DNA of 64,000 nucleotides from NCBI GenBank assembly GCA_035626675.1, contig DASPNH010000202.1, forward strand, positions 15,020-79,019. Reading direction: 5' to 3'. A program made the position numbers and the translations under genes. How positions within the stretch are numbered: the first letter of the stretch is position 1; every line of letters begins with the position of its first letter. This stretch comes from Candidatus Binatia bacterium (GTDB lineage Bacteria > Desulfobacterota > Binatia > UBA1149 > CAITLU01). Shown here piece by piece: positions 577 through 45,995 of the stretch. The notes under the pieces are model-generated. The model did not search any database. It had not been told where the DNA came from and saw only the letters and a program-made list of their open reading frames with translations.

Positions 577-3279
577 ATGAAGATCCGCAACGCGCTTTCT
601 CTGATCGCCGCCCTGACCGCCGGACTGGCCGCCGCCTCCCCCGCCCACGCCGACAAGGCCAAGGGCAAGGACCTCATCGCCACCGGCCTCGAGGTCACCC
701 AGTCCGTCCAGACCCTGGCCAACGACGTTCCCCTGGTCACCGGCAAGAACACCTGGGTTCGCGTCTACGCGCGCGTCACCACGGTGGACGGCACCGACAA
801 GCTCGACGGCATCACCGCACGCCTGGTCGCCTCGCGCATCGCACCGGGCCCGGTCACGTTCCTCGGCTTCCTGGACTCGGAGCCGGTCACGATCGGAACC
901 AGCGCCGAAGCCTCGCGCCTGAGCCCCGGCCGCAGCTTCGATTTCAACATTCCGCCCTCGTGGCGCTCGGGCACGGTGCAGATGGTCGCCGTCGTCGACT
1001 TCCACGACGACGTCAGCGAGGCCAGCGAGGTCAACAACGCGCTGCTCTCCACCGTCACCTTCGAGCCGGTGCCGCCGCTGCGCCTGCGCGTCTACGGCGT
1101 CGAGTATCCCGGCGGCACGCTGCCGCCGCCGGTGCACGAGACGCGCCTGCGCTCGTGGCTGTCACGCGTCTATCCGACCGCGTCGGTGCTGTACCAGCCG
1201 CGAACCCTGACGACTCCCATCGCCTGGCCCAACGACCAGTGCACCTGCACGCGCGACGACGACGGCAACTGCGGCAACGTCGGCGTGTGCCCCAACGATC
1301 CTGGCCGTCCGTGCGACTCCGATCTGGACTGCGGCTGCGCGCGACTGAACGATCAGCTCACCACGATGCGCAACTTCGACAAGGCCAACCAGCCGGGCAC
1401 GTTCGATCCCGACCGGCGCTACGTGGCCATGGTCCACGACGACGGCGGCTTCATGCGCGGCTGCTCGCCGGGCGTGGACCGCAAGGTCGCGGCAGGCCCG
1501 GCCGGCCCCGGAGACTTCGGTTGGGATTTCGACGGCTCCTACGCCGACTGGTACACCGGCCACGAGATCGGTCACGCACTGGGACGCCCGCATGCGACCT
1601 GCTGCGGCGCCGAGCCCAATCCCGGCGACGTCGTCTTTCCCTACGACATGTGCCTGATCGGCGAGACCGACAACGCCGTGGTCGGCTTCGACACCTCGCT
1701 GCATCGAACCTACACCGCCGACTGGACGACGTCGTGGACCGACATGATGAGCTACTGCGACGCGGTGTGGCTGTCGGATTTCACCTACGAAGCGCTGCTC
1801 GACCAGCTCGTCGAAGAGAATGGTGCTCCGCCGCCGCCGCCGCCCGTCCTCGGCGACTACGTGCTGGTGCAGGGGAGCAAGAACGCCAAGCTCGGCAGCG
1901 TCAGGATCACCAGCGTGGTGCGGATGGATGATGCATGGGCGAACGCGCCGCGCACCGCCGGCGACCTGCTGATCGAGCTCTACGACGCCGCCGGAGGGCT
2001 GGCTGCCACGCACGCGGCGGCCACCGCAGTGATGGAAGATGACGCCGACCTCGTGCCCGACAGCCTTGCCGGCCAGGTGCGCAGCTCCAATCCGATCGCA
2101 ACCTTCGCCGAGGTTCTTCCGGTGCCGGCCGGAGGCCTGTCCCGCATCGCGATCGTCGAGAGCGGCGTCGAGGTCGCTTCGCGCGAGGGATCGGCAAATC
2201 CACCCACGGTGCTGATCACGTCTCCGGCCGGCGGCGAGAGCGTCGACGACGGATTCGAGATCACGTGGACGGCAGGCGATCCCGACGGCGATGCGCTCGA
2301 GTTCTTCGTGCTTTACAGCACGGATGCCGGCGCGACCTGGGAGACGATCGCCGCAGGGATCACGGACGACGCGCTGACGTTCGATCGCAAGGGGCTGGCT
2401 GGAGGAACGCAGGTGCTGCTGCGCGTCGTGGCAAGCGACGGTTTCCATTCGGCCAGCGACGACAGCGACGGCGTCGTCACGGTTCCGGACGCCGACCCGT
2501 CCATCGTCATCGTTGCTCCAGCCGGCGGCGCAACACTGGCGGCGTTGCAGACGCTGAGCCTCGAGGCTTCCGCCGACGATGCCGACGACGGCGTGCTCGG
2601 CGAGGGCAGCGTCGTGTGGACATCGGATCGCCAGGGCGCGCTCGGCCAGGGCAGCTCGCTGACGCCGGCGCTGGCGCTCGTGCCCGGAACGCATCTGCTG
2701 ACCGCGACGGCCACCGACTCGCAGGGCAACACCGCCAGCGACAGCATCGAGGTCGTGGTCGGAAGCGCAGCGGCCGACGCCTGCGGCCCGTCACCGCGAG
2801 AGGATTGCGACGAGGGGCGCGGAAAGATGACCGTGCGCACGGGAAGCGATGGTCGCACCAAGCACCAGCTCTATCGCCTGTTTGGAGGCGCCGACGGCGA
2901 CGCCGCGACGCTGTTCGGCGACCCCACCACTTCGACGGCGCACACGCTGTGCATCTACGAGAACGGCCTGCTGACCAACGCCCTGGCCCTTCCGGCGCCT
3001 GGCCCGGGCTGGCACGCGGTCCGTCATCGCGGCTTCTCGATCGTGGATCGCAGCAGCACCTCGGTGCAGAAGGCGGTGCTGACGGCGGGAACGGCGGATG
3101 CGCCGAAGCCGGCAAGGATCCTGGTCAAGGGTGAGGGCGACGATCTTCCCGACCTGCGCCTGCCGGCAACGGTGCCGCTCCACGTCCAGCTGGTCAACGA
3201 CACCGACACGAGCTGCTTCAGTGCCGCATTCCACTCGCTGACCAAGAACGGCAGCGGAGTGCTGCAGGCCAAGGAGTGA
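577..3279 (+). CDS. Secreted multidomain zinc metalloprotease (metzincin-like) with Ig/CARDB-like modules and a Cys-containing C-terminal domain
   Basis: Signal peptide MKIRNALSLIAALTAGLAAASPAHA (ATG 577, in frame with ORF 358). Extended zinc motif HEIGHALGRPH and Met-turn DMMSY. DEVSEASEVNN resembles a CARDB motif; Ig-like TATATDSQG strands. Confidence 0.8.
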   Translation: MKIRNALSLIAALTAGLAAASPAHADKAKGKDLIATGLEVTQSVQTLANDVPLVTGKNTWVRVYARVTTVDGTDKLDGITARLVASRIAPGPVTFLGFLDSEPVTIGTSAEASRLSPGRSFDFNIPPSWRSGTVQMVAVVDFHDDVSEASEVNNALLSTVTFEPVPPLRLRVYGVEYPGGTLPPPVHETRLRSWLSRVYPTASVLYQPRTLTTPIAWPNDQCTCTRDDDGNCGNVGVCPNDPGRPCDSDLDCGCARLNDQLTTMRNFDKANQPGTFDPDRRYVAMVHDDGGFMRGCSPGVDRKVAAGPAGPGDFGWDFDGSYADWYTGHEIGHALGRPHATCCGAEPNPGDVVFPYDMCLIGETDNAVVGFDTSLHRTYTADWTTSWTDMMSYCDAVWLSDFTYEALLDQLVEENGAPPPPPPVLGDYVLVQGSKNAKLGSVRITSVVRMDDAWANAPRTAGDLLIELYDAAGGLAATHAAATAVMEDDADLVPDSLAGQVRSSNPIATFAEVLPVPAGGLSRIAIVESGVEVASREGSANPPTVLITSPAGGESVDDGFEITWTAGDPDGDALEFFVLYSTDAGATWETIAAGITDDALTFDRKGLAGGTQVLLRVVASDGFHSASDDSDGVVTVPDADPSIVIVAPAGGATLAALQTLSLEASADDADDGVLGEGSVVWTSDRQGALGQGSSLTPALALVPGTHLLTATATDSQGNTASDSIEVVVGSAAADACGPSPREDCDEGRGKMTVRTGSDGRTKHQLYRLFGGADGDAATLFGDPTTSTAHTLCIYENGLLTNALALPAPGPGWHAVRHRGFSIVDRSSTSVQKAVLTAGTADAPKPARILVKGEGDDLPDLRLPATVPLHVQLVNDTDTSCFSAAFHSLTKNGSGVLQAKE

Positions 3280-37511: not shown

Positions 37512-38594
37512 ATGGCGGCTCTGGGCCGTGCAGCCATCGCGGTGTCCCGCGACGCGTCCGCGCGTCCGGGCCAATATCGCTTTCCATTCACACCGTTTCC
37601 ACGCGGCTGGTTCGCAGTGGCTTTCGGCGACGAGCTCGTCGCCGGCGCCGTGATGCCGCTCCAGTTCTTCGGCAAAGACCTCGTCGCCTATCGAACCGAA
37701 TCCGGACGAGCCGTCGTCGCCGACGCGCACTGTCCGCATCTCGGCGCGCATCTCGGCTACGGCGGAACCGTCGAAGGCGAGTGCATCCGCTGTCCCTTTC
37801 ATCGCTGGAAGTTCGACGACAGCGGTCGCTGCGTCGAGATCCCGTTCCAGAACAGGCCGTCCTCGCGTGCGCGTCTGCATCGCTGGCACGTCGACGAAGT
37901 CGACGGGATGGTGCTGGTGTGGCACGACATCGACGGCTCCGAGCCGGACTGGTACGTGGAGCCGATGGCCGAGACCGATGCGTTCTGCCTGCCGCAGGCG
38001 CCGAGTACCTGCGACTGGACGCTGCGCTCGCACGTGCAGGAGATCTGCGAGAACGCTTTCGACATCGCGCATTTCCCGGCCGTCCACGGCATGGGACTGC
38101 CGCCCAACGCGCAGCTGACGTTCGAAGGCGAGCGCTCCATCGTCATGTTCGACACGCTCTCGAACGGTCAGGCTTTCGGACTGCCGGGCGAGTTCCCGAC
38201 CAAGGTACGCATGGACCTGCAGGGTCTCGGCGTGCTGCAGGCCGACACCGCGCTTCCCGAGTTCGGCTTCTGCTTTCGCAACTCGCTCTACATGACGCCC
38301 ATCGACGACCAGCACATCCGTCTTCGCGCAGCCATGAGCGTGCGCAAGCTCGGCGACGACGACACGACCGCCGCGCTGCAGGACATCTGGGTCAAGACGT
38401 TCGCGATGGACCTGCCCAAGGACTTCCAGATCTGGGAGCACAAGGTCTACGTACAGCGACCCGAGTTCTCGCGCGTGGACGGGCCGATTGGGCGCATGCG
38501 GCGCTGGGCGCAGCAGTTCTACGAGCTGGCAGCCGAGCCGATGGTCGCCGACAACGTGCTTCAGATGGTCAGCGGCGCCGGGATGGTGAAGTAG
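37512..38594 (+). CDS. Rieske non-heme iron oxygenase, KshA/Neverland-like
   Basis: CPHLGAHL...CPFH Rieske ligands; ENAFDIAHFPAVH iron motif; DFQIWEHK...DGPIGRMRRWAQQFY. Confidence 0.88.
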   Translation: MAALGRAAIAVSRDASARPGQYRFPFTPFPRGWFAVAFGDELVAGAVMPLQFFGKDLVAYRTESGRAVVADAHCPHLGAHLGYGGTVEGECIRCPFHRWKFDDSGRCVEIPFQNRPSSRARLHRWHVDEVDGMVLVWHDIDGSEPDWYVEPMAETDAFCLPQAPSTCDWTLRSHVQEICENAFDIAHFPAVHGMGLPPNAQLTFEGERSIVMFDTLSNGQAFGLPGEFPTKVRMDLQGLGVLQADTALPEFGFCFRNSLYMTPIDDQHIRLRAAMSVRKLGDDDTTAALQDIWVKTFAMDLPKDFQIWEHKVYVQRPEFSRVDGPIGRMRRWAQQFYELAAEPMVADNVLQMVSGAGMVK

Positions 38595-40189
38595 AAGGTC
38601 GCGCCCGAATCGGGCCTTCCTTCCGCCCACACCGTGCCGCCGTGGCGGCGCACGATCCGCTCGACGGTTGCCAGGCCGATACCGCTGCCCTCGAACTCCT
38701 TGCTGTTGTGCAGGCGTTCGAAGGGCTTGAAGAGCTTGTCGGCGTAGTGCGCGTCGAAACCCGCCCCGTTGTCGCGCACGAAGTAGACCGACTGGCCGCT
38801 CGGCAGGCGCCCCGACCCGAAGTGGATCACGGCATTCTGCGTCTGCGAGGTGAACTTCCAGGCGTTGTCGAGCAGGTTGGCGATGACGTCGTGGATGAGC
38901 GTGGGATCACCGAAGCAGACCAGGTCCTGATCGATCTGGACTTCGGCGTGATCGGTCATCCACGTCTCGCGAATCTCCTTGAGCACGTCGACGGCGAGCT
39001 GGGTCATGTCGATCTTCTCGCGCTTGAGCTCGCAGCGCGAGACGCGTGACATCTTCAGCAGGTCGTCGATCAGGCGTCCCATGCGCTGGCTGGCCGTGCG
39101 CGCACGCGTCACGTACGACATGCCGCGCTCGCCCAGCGCATCGCTGAACTCCTCGCCGATCAGGTAACAGAAGCCGTCGATGCTGCGCAGGGGCGTGCGC
39201 AGGTCGTGGCTGACCGAGTAGGAGAAGGATTCGAGCTCGCGGTTGGCGTCGCGCAGCTCGGCCGTGCGGCGCTCGACCCGTTCGTTCAGATCGTCGTTGA
39301 GGCGCCGGATCTCCTGCTCGACCTTCTTGTGCTCGCCGATGTCGGTGACGGTGCCGATGTAGCCGCAGATGTCGCCCTGCGCGTCGCGTTCCTCGACGCC
39401 GCGGCAGATCACCCACAGCGGCTGGCCATCGGGCCGCGGCACGCGGAAGGTCAGGCGGCGAGGCTCGCCGGGGCTCCACAGCGTGGCGTTCCATTCCTGC
39501 CAGACACGGTCGCGGTCGTCGGGATGGATCCATTCCAGGCAGTGACGTCCCACCGCCTCGTGCGGCGGGATGCCGATGAGCTCGGAGAAGCCGGCGTTGA
39601 CGTACTGGAAGAAGCCCTGCGGATCGATGCGCACGATGCCGATGGGCGCGGTCTCGGCCAGCAGCTTGTAGCGTTCTTCGCTGGCGCGAAGGTTGGCCTG
39701 GGTCTGGCGAAGCTCGGTGATGTCGAGCGAGACGCCCACGGCCGCCCCGCCGCCGGTCTCGTCGTAGGTGATGTACGTCAGAGCCGACCAGCCGGTGCCG
39801 GCCAGGGCGCCGTCGGACTCGTGGTAGACCGTCTCGCCTTCCAGGGCGCGCTTAATGTAGTCGCCGACCTCGGGGAAGATCTCGTAGGCGTTCAGGCCAA
39901 GGATGCTGTGGGGCGGAACTGGCAGGACCTTGAAACCGCCGCCGATGGACTCGGTGATGGTGCCGTCGCGCTCGATGCGGAAGCAGATGAAGGGAAGCGA
40001 CAGCATCCCGTGCAGCACGCGGGCTGCGAAGGGCGGGATCTCGATGGCTTCGGTGTTGCGAGCGGCCAGCTTGGCTTCGAGCTCGCGGACGTGAGCACGC
40101 AGCAAGTCCAGCTCGGCCTCGACCGCAGGGTCGGGGCGACTGGCCCTCAGGATCATGCTCGTACTGGCGAGACGGGTAGACTTGCTCAT
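38561..40189 (-). CDS. PAS-PAS sensor histidine kinase
   Basis: Two PAS-like segments (IHPDDR, YIGTVTDI), H-box FSYSVSHDLRTPL, NLLDNAWKF, DNGAGFD, GSGIGLA. Confidence 0.9.
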   Translation of the reverse strand: MSKSTRLASTSMILRASRPDPAVEAELDLLRAHVRELEAKLAARNTEAIEIPPFAARVLHGMLSLPFICFRIERDGTITESIGGGFKVLPVPPHSILGLNAYEIFPEVGDYIKRALEGETVYHESDGALAGTGWSALTYITYDETGGGAAVGVSLDITELRQTQANLRASEERYKLLAETAPIGIVRIDPQGFFQYVNAGFSELIGIPPHEAVGRHCLEWIHPDDRDRVWQEWNATLWSPGEPRRLTFRVPRPDGQPLWVICRGVEERDAQGDICGYIGTVTDIGEHKKVEQEIRRLNDDLNERVERRTAELRDANRELESFSYSVSHDLRTPLRSIDGFCYLIGEEFSDALGERGMSYVTRARTASQRMGRLIDDLLKMSRVSRCELKREKIDMTQLAVDVLKEIRETWMTDHAEVQIDQDLVCFGDPTLIHDVIANLLDNAWKFTSQTQNAVIHFGSGRLPSGQSVYFVRDNGAGFDAHYADKLFKPFERLHNSKEFEGSGIGLATVERIVRRHGGTVWAEGRPDSGATFYFTIPAPLTI

Positions 40190-40449
40190 CCTTTGCCCCA
40201 CGGGCTGGACGAGCGATCGATCTTCGCGCGGAGACCGCCCAGCAAAGCGGCCCCGCCGCCTAAAAGCACCAAGTGCGCCGGCGTGTAAAGAAAAAAGTCA
40301 GCAGCGGGGAGAATCGTTTACACGGGCCGCGGTTAGCTCGACGGAAAACGCAAGATTCACGCGAAAATCGTGGGGCCGTGTCGGGTATGGGAGCCTGGTT
40401 GCCAGTGACATTTCGGACGAGGCTGACGTCACACGGCCAACCCTAACTT

Positions 40450-40751
40450 GGGGGTGAAGGCGCGACGTATCGATTTCGTGCTCCCGCGTTCATTCTTGAA
40501 CGGCGCGGGACATTGGCGGCGCGGCGGCCAAGCCGCGCCCGTGAGGACGTATGCGGAAACGTTGCGGATTCGGCGCGGGGCGGCGTGGCACGCCGAGTGC
40601 TTTGGTGAAGGCGCGGCGATCCGGACTTCGGTCCGGCAAGCCGTGTCCCTCCCCGGCAGCGGCCCAACGCAGGGAGTGGACGGCGCGCGTCCGTTGTGGA
40701 GACGGGCGCGCGCCACCCCTCCTGCCGGGGAGGATGCGGTGAGCCCTTTTT
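40450..40751 (+). ncRNA. Unassigned highly structured candidate ncRNA
   Basis: Consecutive stems, including a C(UUCG)G hairpin (40621-40636), a 12-bp perfect stem 40648-40659/40721-40732, a 13-bp stem with a G-U pair, and T5 at 40747-40751. No credible ORF. Confidence 0.5.
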
Positions 40752-40942
40752 ACTGGTTTGCGGAGATACGGGAAGTGGGAGTGGGGGATTTCGGCCACTA
40801 CGAACGTCCGCGGCGGCGACTAGCATCTCACCATGCGCGCCCGACGCAGCGGAATGCTGTCGGCGCGCCGAGCCCTAGGCGCAAAGCGAATCGGTGATGA
40901 ACCGCCGCCGGGCTAATCGCGACAGTCCCGTGTTGTCGTTGA

Positions 40943-41015
40943 AGCTGACGGCCGGACTCGAACCGGCGACCTGCTGATTACGAATCAGCTGCTCTACCAA
41001 CTGAGCTACGTCAGC
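40943..41015 (-). tRNA. tRNA-Thr (anticodon CGT)
   Basis: Minus strand reads GCTGACGTAGCTCAGTTGGTAGAGCAGCTGATTCGTAATCAGCAGGTCGCCGGTTCGAGTCCGGCCGTCAGCT: full cloverleaf with GTTCGA T-loop; CCA not encoded. Confidence 0.97.
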
Positions 41016-41043
41016 CTGAGAGGACGCGGCACCAGGCCGCAAA

Positions 41044-41072
41044 GGCGAGCGCCTATATAACCGGCGCTCGCC
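41044..41072 (-). terminator. 10-bp hairpin after vapC; its loop carries a TATATA -10-like box for the tRNA
   Basis: ggcgagcgcc-tatataacc-ggcgctcgcc, followed by ttt on the minus strand. Confidence 0.5.
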
Positions 41073-41077
41073 ATGGT

Positions 41078-41506
41078 TCAACCCTGGCTTCGGGGCGACC
41101 CTACCCAGCAGGCGACCTGCGGCAGTCCGGCGCCGGCCAGCGTGCCGAGCAGCCTGCGATCGGCGGTCACGAGCTTTCCCTGGTGCCGCATCGCCGCGGC
41201 GACGTAGAGACAATCGTAGACGGGATGGCCGAGCAGGACGGCGAGTCGCAGCGCGTCCTCGATGAGGTCGCGCGTCGGGATCAACTCCACGGGCATCTCG
41301 GCCAGAAGGCTCAGGCAGCTGCTGCTTTCGGCCAGCGTCAGCTGGCGGCGTACGGTGCGTTTCCACAGCAGGCTGGCGACTTCAGCCAGCAGCGATTCGG
41401 GCGCGACCAGCTCGATCTCGTCGTCCAGCCAGGCGCGCGCGTCCTGAGAGTTGTCCTCGGGGAGCACCCATTTCGCCGCGACGCTCGCGTCGACGACGGC
41501 AATCAT
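41078..41506 (-). CDS. vapC: PIN-domain toxin VapC
   Basis: MIAVVDASVAAKW, LLAEVAS, YDCLYVAAA, LVTADRRL. Confidence 0.92.
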   Translation of the reverse strand: MIAVVDASVAAKWVLPEDNSQDARAWLDDEIELVAPESLLAEVASLLWKRTVRRQLTLAESSSCLSLLAEMPVELIPTRDLIEDALRLAVLLGHPVYDCLYVAAAMRHQGKLVTADRRLLGTLAGAGLPQVACWVGSPRSQG

Positions 41507-41730
41507 CGGTCGCGATCCTCGCGAACCAGCTCGGTGCTGTCGCCGAGGGGTCCGGGCAGCGTGGCGCTGAGGCGCTCGGCCGCCTGGCGGAACTGGGATG
41601 CGGAACCGCGAGCGGCCCGCTCGAGCACGACCTTGAGCTCGGCCTGCAACGACCGGTTATGCGCCTTGGCCCGGCCCTTCAGGGCCTGCAGGACCTCGGC
41701 ATCGATTCCGCGGATCAGGACGTTCGGCAT
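41503..41730 (-). CDS. FitA-like ribbon-helix-helix antitoxin
   Basis: MPNVLIRGIDAEVLQALKGRAKAHNRSLQAELKVVLE...DSTELVREDRDR; 4-nt overlap with vapC. Confidence 0.88.
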   Translation of the reverse strand: MPNVLIRGIDAEVLQALKGRAKAHNRSLQAELKVVLERAARGSASQFRQAAERLSATLPGPLGDSTELVREDRDR

Positions 41731-41839
41731 TGGACCACCACGCGCTTTCATTTCGATATCGATCTCTGGCGCAAGTCTATCGCCGTGAGGGCCGCCGGCC
41801 CAAAACCATCGCTGTCATGATTCTTTGGCGGTGCGCGGG

Positions 41840-41909: not shown

Positions 41910-43697
41910 ATGCGCTTCCCGCTCCAGGCCCGCTACACGCTGGCCATCGGCGGCCTGGTCTTCGTGGCCCTTACCGTCCTGTGGATCGGCATGACCATCC
42001 GCAACCGGTCCTTCACCCGCGAGCTCGAGCAAGCCACCTCCAAGACCATGGCCGCGACGCTTCAGCGGCGCAGTGAAGACCAGGCCATGACCATCGCCAC
42101 CAATCTGGCCAAGCGTCTGACCACTGCCGTTGCCAGGAAAGACCTCCCTGCCATCGAGAGGCTGCTTGCCGAGACGCGCCGCTATCCCAACGCGCTGTCG
42201 GCCAAGGTCCTGGACCCGCGCGGCATCGTCTTGCACGACGGCACGCCCGCGAACGCGGATGCCGGCAGCGACTTCGGCACGCGCTGGAGCCGCGAGGCTC
42301 TAAAGAAGAAGAAAGCCGTCGTCGCCGTCGAGATGGAAGCATTGCGAGCGTCCGCGCCGATCATGTCGGACGACGCCAGCGTGCTCGGCATTGCGATGGT
42401 CGAGCTCGCGCGCGTCGACAGCATCGCCGAGGTCGACTTCGAGCGCGGCAACCTGCGCCGCATCATCTACGGAGAGTGGCAGGCACTGGCCATCACCGGC
42501 GCCATCACGGGCCTGGCGCTGGTCGGCCTCTCGATGATGGCGGCAGCCATCGTTGCCGAACGCCTGGCCACGCCGATCGGCGAGCTGGCCGAGCGCGCAC
42601 GTGCCATCGGCCGCGGCGAGCGCGACATCCCCGCAGCGTCCAAACGTCGCGACGAGCTCGGCGATCTCGCGCGTGCCTTCGACGAGATGGCCGCGGCGCT
42701 CAAGTCCACCACGGTCTCCAAGGACTACGTCGACAACATCCTGCAGTCGATGGCCGAGATGCTGGTGGTCACCGACGAGCAGGGCCGCATCGTGACCGCC
42801 AACAACGCCTTCCTTGCCGAGATCGAGGCCGACGAAGCTTCCGCCCGCGGTGCTTCGCTGGAACGGTTTCTTCCGGGTCTTTCGACGTTTTCCCAGCCTC
42901 GTCCGCCGCACTTCGAGCTTCACCGGCCCGACGGCACCACCGTTCCGGTGCAGGTATCGGTCACCCCGCTGCGCGAAGGCGCGGGCACCGATGCCGGCCA
43001 CGTCTACGTCATGCAGAACGTGGCCGAGCGCCTGGCGGCGAGCCGCCAGATCGAGCGCTCGCTGCGCGAGAACGAGATCCTGCTCAAGGAGATTCACCAC
43101 CGCGTCAAGAACAACCTGCAGATCATCTCGAGCATGCTCAGCCTGCAGGCGGCGCGCACCGACGACCGCCGTGCGCGCGCGGTGTTCATCGAGAGCGAGA
43201 GCCGCATTCGTGCGATGGCGCTGATCCACGAGCAGCTCTACCGATCCGGCGACCTGGCGCGCGTCAACATCGGCGAGTATCTCGAGAATCTCAGCCGGCA
43301 GATCGCGCGCTACCTCGGACGCCTGGACTGCCGCGTCGAGATCGCCTGCGACTTCCAGGAAGTGCCGGTCGACGTGGCCATTCCGTGCGGGCTGATCGTC
43401 AACGAGCTGGTCACCAACTGTATCCAGCACGCCTTCCCGGACGGTCGCGCCGGCACGGTCAGCATCTGGTTCACTGCCAGCAAGGGGCAGCGCGTGCTGA
43501 TCGTCAGCGACGACGGCGTGGGCGTGTCGCCCGACGTGGATCTGGAATCGGGCGCCACGCTCGGCCTGAAGCTCGTGCGCGCGCTGTCGGATCAGCTCGG
43601 CGGGCGCCTCGAGATCATCAACGACAACGGTGCGACTTTCCGCATCACTTTCCCGGCCAAGGACGAGAGCGGCGGGCGCCAATCGCGCGCTGCATGA
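41910..43697 (+). CDS. Membrane HAMP-PAS sensor histidine kinase (HisKA_2 type)
   Basis: Two TM segments, HAMP (RRDELGDLARAFDEM), PAS, LLKEIHHRVKNNLQII, NELVTNCIQHAF, SDDGVG. Confidence 0.9.
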   Translation: MRFPLQARYTLAIGGLVFVALTVLWIGMTIRNRSFTRELEQATSKTMAATLQRRSEDQAMTIATNLAKRLTTAVARKDLPAIERLLAETRRYPNALSAKVLDPRGIVLHDGTPANADAGSDFGTRWSREALKKKKAVVAVEMEALRASAPIMSDDASVLGIAMVELARVDSIAEVDFERGNLRRIIYGEWQALAITGAITGLALVGLSMMAAAIVAERLATPIGELAERARAIGRGERDIPAASKRRDELGDLARAFDEMAAALKSTTVSKDYVDNILQSMAEMLVVTDEQGRIVTANNAFLAEIEADEASARGASLERFLPGLSTFSQPRPPHFELHRPDGTTVPVQVSVTPLREGAGTDAGHVYVMQNVAERLAASRQIERSLRENEILLKEIHHRVKNNLQIISSMLSLQAARTDDRRARAVFIESESRIRAMALIHEQLYRSGDLARVNIGEYLENLSRQIARYLGRLDCRVEIACDFQEVPVDVAIPCGLIVNELVTNCIQHAFPDGRAGTVSIWFTASKGQRVLIVSDDGVGVSPDVDLESGATLGLKLVRALSDQLGGRLEIINDNGATFRITFPAKDESGGRQSRAA

Positions 43698-43707
43698 AGG
43701 GGAACGC

Positions 43708-45441
<1,734 letters not shown>

Positions 45442-45551: not shown

Positions 45552-45612
45552 TGTCTCAAAGTGTCTCGCCGATAAGTCGCCGAGACAGCCACGATACACG
45601 TTCGCTGAGACA
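45552..45612. promoter_or_regulatory. Upstream activating sequences (enhancer) for a sigma-54 promoter
   Basis: TGTCTCA 45552, TGTCTCG 45562, CGAGACA 45581, CGATACA 45592, TGAGACA 45606; 45562/45581 form a perfect 7-bp IR with a 12-nt spacer. Confidence 0.65.
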
Positions 45613-45642
45613 TCACTCCGTCGAGGCGGCCAGCTTGGCAGC

Positions 45643-45655
45643 CAAACAGCTGATT
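45643..45655 (-). promoter_or_regulatory. IHF-like binding site
   Basis: Minus strand AATCAGCTGTTTG fits WATCARNNNNTTR, lies between the UAS and the promoter, and has an adjacent A/T tract. Confidence 0.5.
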
Positions 45656-45692
45656 TTGCAGCAGTTTATTATTCGGGAGCTGCGAGCCGGCT

Positions 45693-45708
45693 CGGCACGA
45701 CAAATGCT
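45693..45708 (+). promoter_or_regulatory. Sigma-54 (RpoN) -24/-12 promoter
   Basis: CGGCACGACAAATGCT: GG at 45694-45695 and GC at 45706-45707 (GG-N10-GC); predicted +1 near 45719-45720. Confidence 0.7.
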
Positions 45709-45718
45709 CTAGAGCTAT

Positions 45719-45995
45719 CAGCGGCGAGGCCGCCAGGAGAAACGAGGGAGAGGGAACGGAGCGCGTGCACGGCGCGCTCCGAAGGATCAACGCAACGAAA
45801 CGAACAGGACTCTGAGCCGTAGGACCAGTCCCCCAACGCTACGGCTCACGTCCGCACTCACTCCCCCCGGGGGGCTGCGGACAGTGAGGCCCGGCGCTCC
45901 AAGGCCAGAGGGGCGCCGGGCGCTTCCCACAAGCTGAGGGGACAGGCACCGGCTACCCGCAATAGCCGGACCGCCTGTCCCCTTTCGCATTTTTA
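45719..45995 (+). ncRNA. Candidate sigma-54-dependent regulatory small RNA
   Basis: Starts at the predicted RpoN TSS; six hairpins separated by GGA- and A-rich single strands; ends in a hairpin plus T-rich tract; no convincing ORF. Confidence 0.55.

Follow-up and report, generated by a model that had tools for sequence, protein, structure and literature searches.

A candidate sigma-54-driven small RNA gene with an invariant hairpin next to tRNA-Thr in an uncultured soil bacterium

The enterobacterial small RNA GlmY acts by protein titration, with RapZ as its partner, and in the Qrr RNAs one stretch is identical from species to species. Small RNAs that are encoded near an NtrC-type regulator and controlled by it with sigma-54 have been described, namely Qrr with LuxO in Vibrio and CrcZ with CbrAB in Pseudomonas (PMC4878744, PMC8871633). 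A sigma-54 site of the TGGCAC-N5-TGC type, TGGCACGTTATGTGCAAT, is also listed for glmZ in PMC3844500. The stretch of DNA analyzed here (the window, 64 kb) has a soil metagenome as its sample source. In it, a 740-nt gap between the gene for a PAS-HisKA histidine kinase and that for tRNA-Thr(CGU) had been predicted to hold a highly structured but unassigned noncoding RNA of about 300 nt on the plus strand (40450-40751). We find that the conserved and significantly structured unit is only about 140 nt long, and that the 5′ half of the predicted interval looks like a promoter and upstream DNA. The reading that we favor, and hold to be fairly probable, is that the plus strand carries a stand-alone, sigma-54-driven gene for a small RNA of about 140 nt (~40612-40751). 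The one full-length relative recovered belongs to Limnocylindria, which are abundant in soils and uncultured; to our knowledge, hardly anything has been learned about RNA regulators of Chloroflexota, and nothing about those of Limnocylindria, and our search for literature on noncoding RNA in the latter found nothing useful.

Extent of the structured unit

The stems listed in the original prediction, its 12-mer repeat (40453 and 40604) and its T5 run (40747-40751) are all present in the sequence, and the description as an unassigned structured RNA on the plus strand holds: an Rfam search of the window gave no family match to the element at gathering thresholds, and at E<=10 the stretch 40150-41050 returned only the tRNA and fragments at chance level. 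ARAGORN finds no tmRNA in the window. Among known classes, tmRNA, SRP, RNase P, 6S, Y RNA and bridge or omega RNAs were dropped, as they came without a model hit or a required neighbor gene. A retron msr-msd RNA was rejected because the tRNA and a VapC/FitA pair, and no reverse transcriptase, lie downstream. The comparison with GOLLD and ROOL was abandoned on the grounds of size and of the Rfam result.

The 90% cluster of the PAS kinase includes a protein of a Candidatus Limnocylindrales MAG (Chloroflexota), and the full-length relative of the locus is the L001 contig of that MAG, with identical copies in L002-L004 and L014. Full-length sequences of the small RNA number two (the window and the L001 type), all other variants being 30-nt flanks from contig ends. 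Four intergenic pieces are conserved between the window and this relative, namely 40203-40320, 40448-40457, an island at about 40586-40601 and 40638-40734, the last of which aligns without substitution (97 of 97 positions) and with one extra G. The sequence from 40458 to 40585 cannot be aligned.

Folding of the window agrees with this division. The complete 302 nt do fold better than shuffled sequence (-181.6 kcal/mol, z -5.41 on the plus strand, and less so on the minus strand, z -2.33), but the signal is confined to the 3′ half: 40610-40752 alone reaches z -5.55 on the plus strand with a well-defined minimum-energy structure (frequency 0.19), whereas for 40450-40605 z is -1.44 and 18 of 200 shuffles fold equally well. 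In the L001-type relative the 3′ part has z -5.61 and the upstream part z -0.95. The further hairpins that had been suggested up to about 40900 do not stand out either (40752-40940, z +0.15).

A single RNA of about 300 nt, in which a 5′ GGGGG(U)GA pairs with the pyrimidine-rich tail and encloses a variable 5′ domain and a conserved 3′ hairpin, would agree with the z-scores of the full interval (-5.4 in the window, -4.4 in the relative), with a closing helix in each lineage (9 bp in the L001 type), with the conservation of TTGGGGGTGA at its proposed 5′ end and with a contig from an RNA library (run X10) that reaches about 110 nt upstream of the first hairpin. We nevertheless regard it as unlikely, given that in both lineages the 5′ half, folded by itself, does not surpass shuffles, that it is unalignable and its predicted helices differ between the two, and that the one conserved island within it matches the sigma-54 promoter consensus exactly. 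Moreover, a run of five G pairs with any C/U-rich tail by chance, and no sigma-70-like promoter was found upstream of the proposed long RNA. The small RNA of about 140 nt is therefore preferred, and 40458-40585 appears, from its sequence, to be upstream DNA that holds no conserved RNA.

Several features ascribed to the longer element find a simpler reading here. The predicted preference for G-U wobbles on the plus strand shows in the 5′ half as an asymmetry that shuffles match, and there it reflects base composition (G-richness). The cggcgtg/cacgccg stem has a loop of 1 nt and overlaps sequence that is better read as the promoter. The proposal of two modules was based on the repeat of GGTGAAGGCGCG, which is missing in the relative and is therefore no feature of the element. 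This direct repeat of 12-15 nt, GGTGAAGGCGCG(A/G)CG at 40453-40467 and 40604-40618, is found only in the lineage of the window. Its first copy directly follows TTGGGGG, its second falls between the -12 element and the RNA start, and it may be a small local duplication. In GC-rich DNA such as this, the impression of having every base in a stem calls for caution, as it doubled the size of the element and took in its putative promoter.

Table 1 Features of the locus in window coordinates.
Feature	Position	Strand	Basis or remark
PAS-HisKA-HATPase histidine kinase	38561-40201	-	Pfam; divergent from small RNA
TTGGGGGTGA	40448-40457		Same place in both lineages, 138-140 nt before the -24 element
Upstream DNA with lineage-specific palindromes (e.g. 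TCCCGCG..CGCGGGA, 40482-40510)	40458-40585		Unalignable; folding z at chance
Putative sigma-54-type promoter TGGCACGCCGAGTGCT (TGGCACG-N5-TGCT)	40586-40601	+	-24 GG; -12 GC at 40599/40600
5′ hairpin P5	40610-40647	+	Minimum-energy structure
P5 outer helix	40610-40617 with 40640-40647	+	Minimum-energy structure
P5 inner helix	40621-40626 with 40631-40636	+	UUCG loop 40627-40630
Invariant block, 93 nt	40641-40733	+	3′ strand of P5 plus long three-way hairpin (40648-40733)
Basal stem of long hairpin	40648-40658 with 40723-40733	+	
Mini-hairpin	40659-40670	+	Loop GCCCAA
Apical stem	40682-40694 with 40702-40714	+	Loop ~40695-40701 (UGUGGAG)
3′ tail AUGCGGUGAGCCC and U5 tract (40747-40751)	40734-40751	+	Likely 3′ end
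tRNA-Thr(CGU)	40941-41016	-	ARAGORN, Rfam; convergent with small RNA
HWE/HisKA_2 histidine kinase	41910-43697	+	Pfam
NtrC-type response regulator	43708-45441	+	Pfam Response_reg, Sigma54_activat, HTH_8; GAFTGA in translation
sigma-54 promoter of sRNA-2, CGGCACGACAAATGCT	45693-45708		Preceded by GTGTCTC/GAGACA repeats

Putative promoter and ends of the transcript

The conserved island that precedes the structured unit matches TGGCACGNNNNNTGCW exactly, as no other site of the 64-kb window does, and lies on the plus strand, 10 nt ahead of the first helix. With a matrix built from 29 ChIP-supported Salmonella sites (PMC3844500), it scores 15.8 bits and is the top site of the window, the next best reaching 11.5. 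The site of the relative, TGGCACGACGCCTGCT, scores 16.9 bits, is the top site of its locus and is equally far from the first helix, although the sequence around it cannot be aligned. Since 28% of shuffled 64-kb windows contain a site of at least 15.8 bits, the promoter call rests on position and conservation. In runs X5 and X10, too, a -12 GCT stands 10-11 nt before GCGG. We infer a transcription start at about 40612, where the first helix begins, so that the first hairpin would form the 5′ end of the RNA. The same site suggests that the small RNA depends on sigma-54: sigma-54 RNA polymerase would bind TGGCACG-N5-TGCT, and an ATP-dependent enhancer-binding activator would be needed for the start.

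That the organism uses sigma-54 activators is suggested by the predicted domains and the GAFTGA motif of the NtrC-type regulator (43708-45441), which is encoded 3 kb from the small RNA; an rpoN gene is absent within the 64-kb window. Upstream of the promoter, TTGGGGGTGA is the only 10-mer that the window and L014 have in common within 250 nt, it lies at equal distance in both, and it is possibly an activator site (UAS).

At the other end, the U5 tract of the window follows the hairpin by 13 nt, and a simple terminator scan makes no call. A U5 tract is present 12-15 nt past the hairpin in five of the seven lineages with a recovered 3′ flank, the exceptions being X2 (CUUUU) and the L001 type (only UCAUUU). 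The first part of the tail can, in all variants, pair instead with CCGUGUC, the segment used by the 5′ strand of P5, and this alternative pairing lengthens the hairpin to 1-6 nt from the U tract at a cost of 2-6 kcal/mol. Intrinsic termination at the U tract is plausible on these predicted folds, and we infer that the small RNA ends at the U5 tract. The tail and the 5′ strand of P5 are near-repeats (GACGCGG occurs twice in X6) that compete for CCGUGUC (40734-40746 with 40640-40647), and the two mutually exclusive helices over this segment could act as a folding switch linked to termination.

Expression data come from one metatranscriptome run, X10, in which a single 198-nt contig contains the hairpin (2.6x depth, unstranded and possibly carried-over DNA). 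It is this contig that extends beyond P5 and past the predicted start, which counts against a start at 40612 if it does represent RNA. No other RNA run with the hairpin was found.

The strand of the element was weighed as well. If the minus strand were the functional one, the element would belong to a long structured leader of the histidine kinase mRNA that lies between tRNA-Thr and the kinase gene, downstream of the tRNA, and 40610-40752 still folds in that direction (z -3.72). This arrangement is very improbable. The plus strand is favored both by 14 kcal/mol and in z-score; UUCG loops and U-G pairs would become CGAA and C-A mismatches if read on the other strand; the U tract and the sigma-54 motif are both on the plus strand; and the hairpin lies 300 nt of unconserved sequence away from the conserved block upstream of the kinase.

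Covarying 5′ hairpin and invariant 93-nt block

In the proposed model the transcript would open with a protective hairpin that is usually capped by UUCG and free to vary in sequence, continue with a 93-nt three-way hairpin that is invariant between lineages, and end at the U tract after a 13-nt tail able to pair back and thereby lengthen the hairpin. The invariant block has no substitution relative to L001/L014 or in the contigs of runs X2-X11, and it differs only in a G run at 40672-40674, which has 3 or 4 residues, and in an extra C in X8. As the indel in the G run breaks every reading frame, the block is non-coding. A 149-aa open reading frame on the plus strand has no Pfam match and is broken by indels in the relative. 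Beyond the two full-length loci, the hairpin is found identical in short contigs from seven further runs, with different flanks in each; these runs are from soil, sediment and rhizosphere, belong to different studies and date from 2018 to 2025.

The covariation check proposed with the original prediction gives a divided answer. Pairs were counted in an alignment (A2) of eight variants from soil, sediment and rhizosphere that was hand-built to fit the structure. The inner P5 helix is 100% paired across the eight, and both sides have changed in five of its six pairs; forms of the stem include CCGGAC/GUCCGG, CUCCGG/CCGGAG, CUUCGG/CCGAAG, UCUC/GAGA and UUUC/GAAG, its sequence differs in each variant, and the cap is UUCG in all except one. 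In this hand-fitted alignment its covariation score is 0.138, compared with 0.043 in shuffles and at most 0.048 with slid partners, and it exceeds all 500 shuffles and all slid controls. In the outer helix of P5 only the 5′ strand varies, the 3′ strand being part of the invariant block. In the long hairpin all 34 of 34 pairs are invariant across the alignment, which makes it uninformative for covariation. Enrichment of GGA (CsrA-type) motifs in the RNA is not significant (45 of 500 shuffles).

The invariance bears on the question of whether there is an RNA gene at all. A long GC-rich hairpin followed by T5 near a tRNA 3′ end might serve as a terminator or insulator that separates tRNA and kinase gene, or be an attachment or recombination site left at the tRNA by a mobile element, and the surroundings of the tRNA do vary (VapC/FitA is present in the window and absent in L001). 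Terminators and attachment relics are, however, not invariant over 93 nt while genes drift: here DNA identity between the window and the L001 type is 87% and 74% for the two kinase genes and 86% for the regulator gene, and the HWE kinase proteins are 70% identical. The tRNA points in the opposite direction and ends 190 nt away. Selection at the RNA level is suggested by the G-U pairs and by the covariation of a hairpin that mostly has a UUCG cap. The related suggestion that the RNA was left by an integrated element likewise fails to find a footing in the window, where the 3′ end of the tRNA has no significant direct repeat, no integrase is encoded and neither blastn nor covariance model R1 finds a second copy of the element. 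Viral contigs gave 0 matches to the apical 21-mer of the hairpin, blastn against a plasmid collection found no match to the element, its flanks are kinases and a toxin-antitoxin pair, and the tRNA-RNA-kinase gene order recurs in a relative of a different lineage. We therefore judge a mere punctuation or attachment site very unlikely and return to the small RNA gene.

In public data the element is scarce. The apical 20-mer of the hairpin has 0 exact matches in 185,579 GTDB species genomes, and a 22-mer search of JGI metagenome contigs recovered only the window's own contig and the L001 type. A 31-mer of the tRNA matched 120 unrelated loci of Acidobacteriota and Clostridia and was a poor choice of probe. 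Covariance model R1 found no match in the loci of distant relatives, and the next relatives by kinase homology (49-51% identity) are without the tRNA-RNA block. Taken at the level of sequence, these results point to a real and new small RNA family of restricted distribution that is rare in JGI metagenomes.

The invariant hairpin would be the working part of the small RNA. Both of its strands, its bulges and its loops are frozen while the adjacent helix covaries, which indicates a constraint on sequence as well as on fold, and a constraint of this type suggests a conserved partner that reads the sequence of the hairpin. The combination of a freely covarying 5′ hairpin with a 93-nt block free of substitutions is unusual for a small RNA, and it is this contrast that hints at a sequence-reading partner.

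Neighborhood, mode of action and relation to known systems

Beyond tRNA-Thr the window encodes, in order, the VapC/FitA pair, the HWE-type kinase and the NtrC-type response regulator. The pair, a VapC (PIN) toxin with a FitA-like antitoxin, occupies 41078-41751 between tRNA-Thr and the HWE kinase; it is present in the lineage of the window (L005, L006) and missing in the L001 type, which makes it the sole indel nearby, at the 5′ side of the tRNA. On the other side of the gap, the block upstream of the PAS histidine kinase (40203-40320) is about 90% identical to the relative, compared with 85% in the 5′ coding region of the kinase, and carries an inverted repeat with a wide spacer, CGTGTAAA-N25-TTTACACG. 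This block is probably a regulatory region or leader of the PAS kinase.

A second structured RNA, sRNA-2, lies downstream of the NtrC-type regulator (45693-45990, within the region 45560-45990). The arrangement is found in four lineages, represented by the window, L001 (~905-1300, minus strand), L135 (8590-8900) and L136 (8710-9016), and its sigma-54 promoter is the top-scoring site of the locus in L135 and L136 and of lower rank in the window and L001. The loops of its hairpins are rich in C (CCUCCCCCCC, CCUCCCCCC and GUCCCCCAACG), and in the terminal hairpin, whose loop AAGGCCAGA is conserved, 6 of 12 pairs are compensatory among the four lineages; 45806-45925 is nearly identical in L001. 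In Rfam it shows only sub-threshold resemblance to 6C, ar7 and ar14, and it is probably a new small RNA family under the control of the adjacent two-component system.

The present RNA and sRNA-2 have in common the type of promoter, the neighborhood, the lineage and a CCCAAC loop motif. Unlike the present RNA, sRNA-2 has C-rich loops, a canonical terminator, upstream repeats and covarying stems, and it occurs in more distant relatives. Model R1 of the present RNA does not match sRNA-2, the GTGTCTC/GAGACA repeats are absent upstream of the present RNA, and no shared activator site was found. The complement of TTGGGGGTGA, UCACCCCCAA, resembles the C-rich loops of sRNA-2. With this second sigma-54-driven RNA in the window, L001, L135 and L136, sigma-54-driven small RNAs appear to be a habit of the lineage, and two of them beside two-component systems amount to a concrete, testable regulatory circuit in an uncultured organism.

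How the present RNA acts can be approached from its pattern of conservation. A base-pairing small RNA would use the GCCCAA and GUGGA loops or the tail, with targets such as the kinase leader mRNA or the C-rich loops of sRNA-2. The CCCAAC motif is shared with the first loop of sRNA-2, and in one of three tests a segment of the side hairpin pairs with the kinase leader better than shuffles do (p about 0.01). The signal is lost after correction for the three tests, the other two being at chance; the tail differs between lineages; and a short seed does not account for the invariance of both strands over 34 pairs. Base pairing is thus a distinctly unlikely mode, and a short single-stranded seed fits the invariance less well than a conserved partner that recognizes the hairpin. 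The mode that we tentatively prefer, by analogy with GlmY and RapZ, is an RNA that binds or titrates a protein; taken by itself this is possible, though less likely than not. More speculatively, the 93-nt hairpin might be the platform of a lineage-wide RNA-protein or RNA-RNA module of Limnocylindria, part of a sigma-54 circuit with sRNA-2 and serving, for example, as a decoy or sponge for two-component output; if true, a new class of ultra-conserved regulatory RNA would have come to light in a major but uncultured soil phylum.

Compared with known systems, the candidate is closest in arrangement to sigma-54-controlled small RNAs encoded next to two-component genes. Like GlmY and GlmZ of Enterobacteriaceae, which lie with GlrK-GlrR, it is a small stem-loop RNA (the known ones are about 150-200 nt) with a sigma-54 type of promoter, beside two-component genes that include an NtrC-type activator. 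Unlike them, it matches neither RF00128 nor RF00083 in sequence or structure at E<=10, its phylum is Chloroflexota as judged by the relative, and its invariant 93-nt three-way hairpin is without counterpart. Qrr with LuxO and CrcZ with CbrAB likewise combine a sigma-54-type promoter with a position near an NtrC-type regulator. However, the conserved stretch of Qrr is a single-stranded seed that works with Hfq, whereas the conserved block here is almost fully base-paired; CrcZ acts through A-rich single-stranded motifs; and the present RNA has no Rfam match to either. With 6S and Ms1-type RNAs it shares extensive base pairing, a protein-binding style and, in the 300-nt reading only, paired ends, but it lacks a central bubble between long arms and has no Rfam 6S hit at E<=10. 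Furthermore, 6S RNA keeps its fold and not its sequence, which is the opposite of the pattern seen here. The kind of RNA is already known, and what makes this one interesting is its lineage and its invariance.
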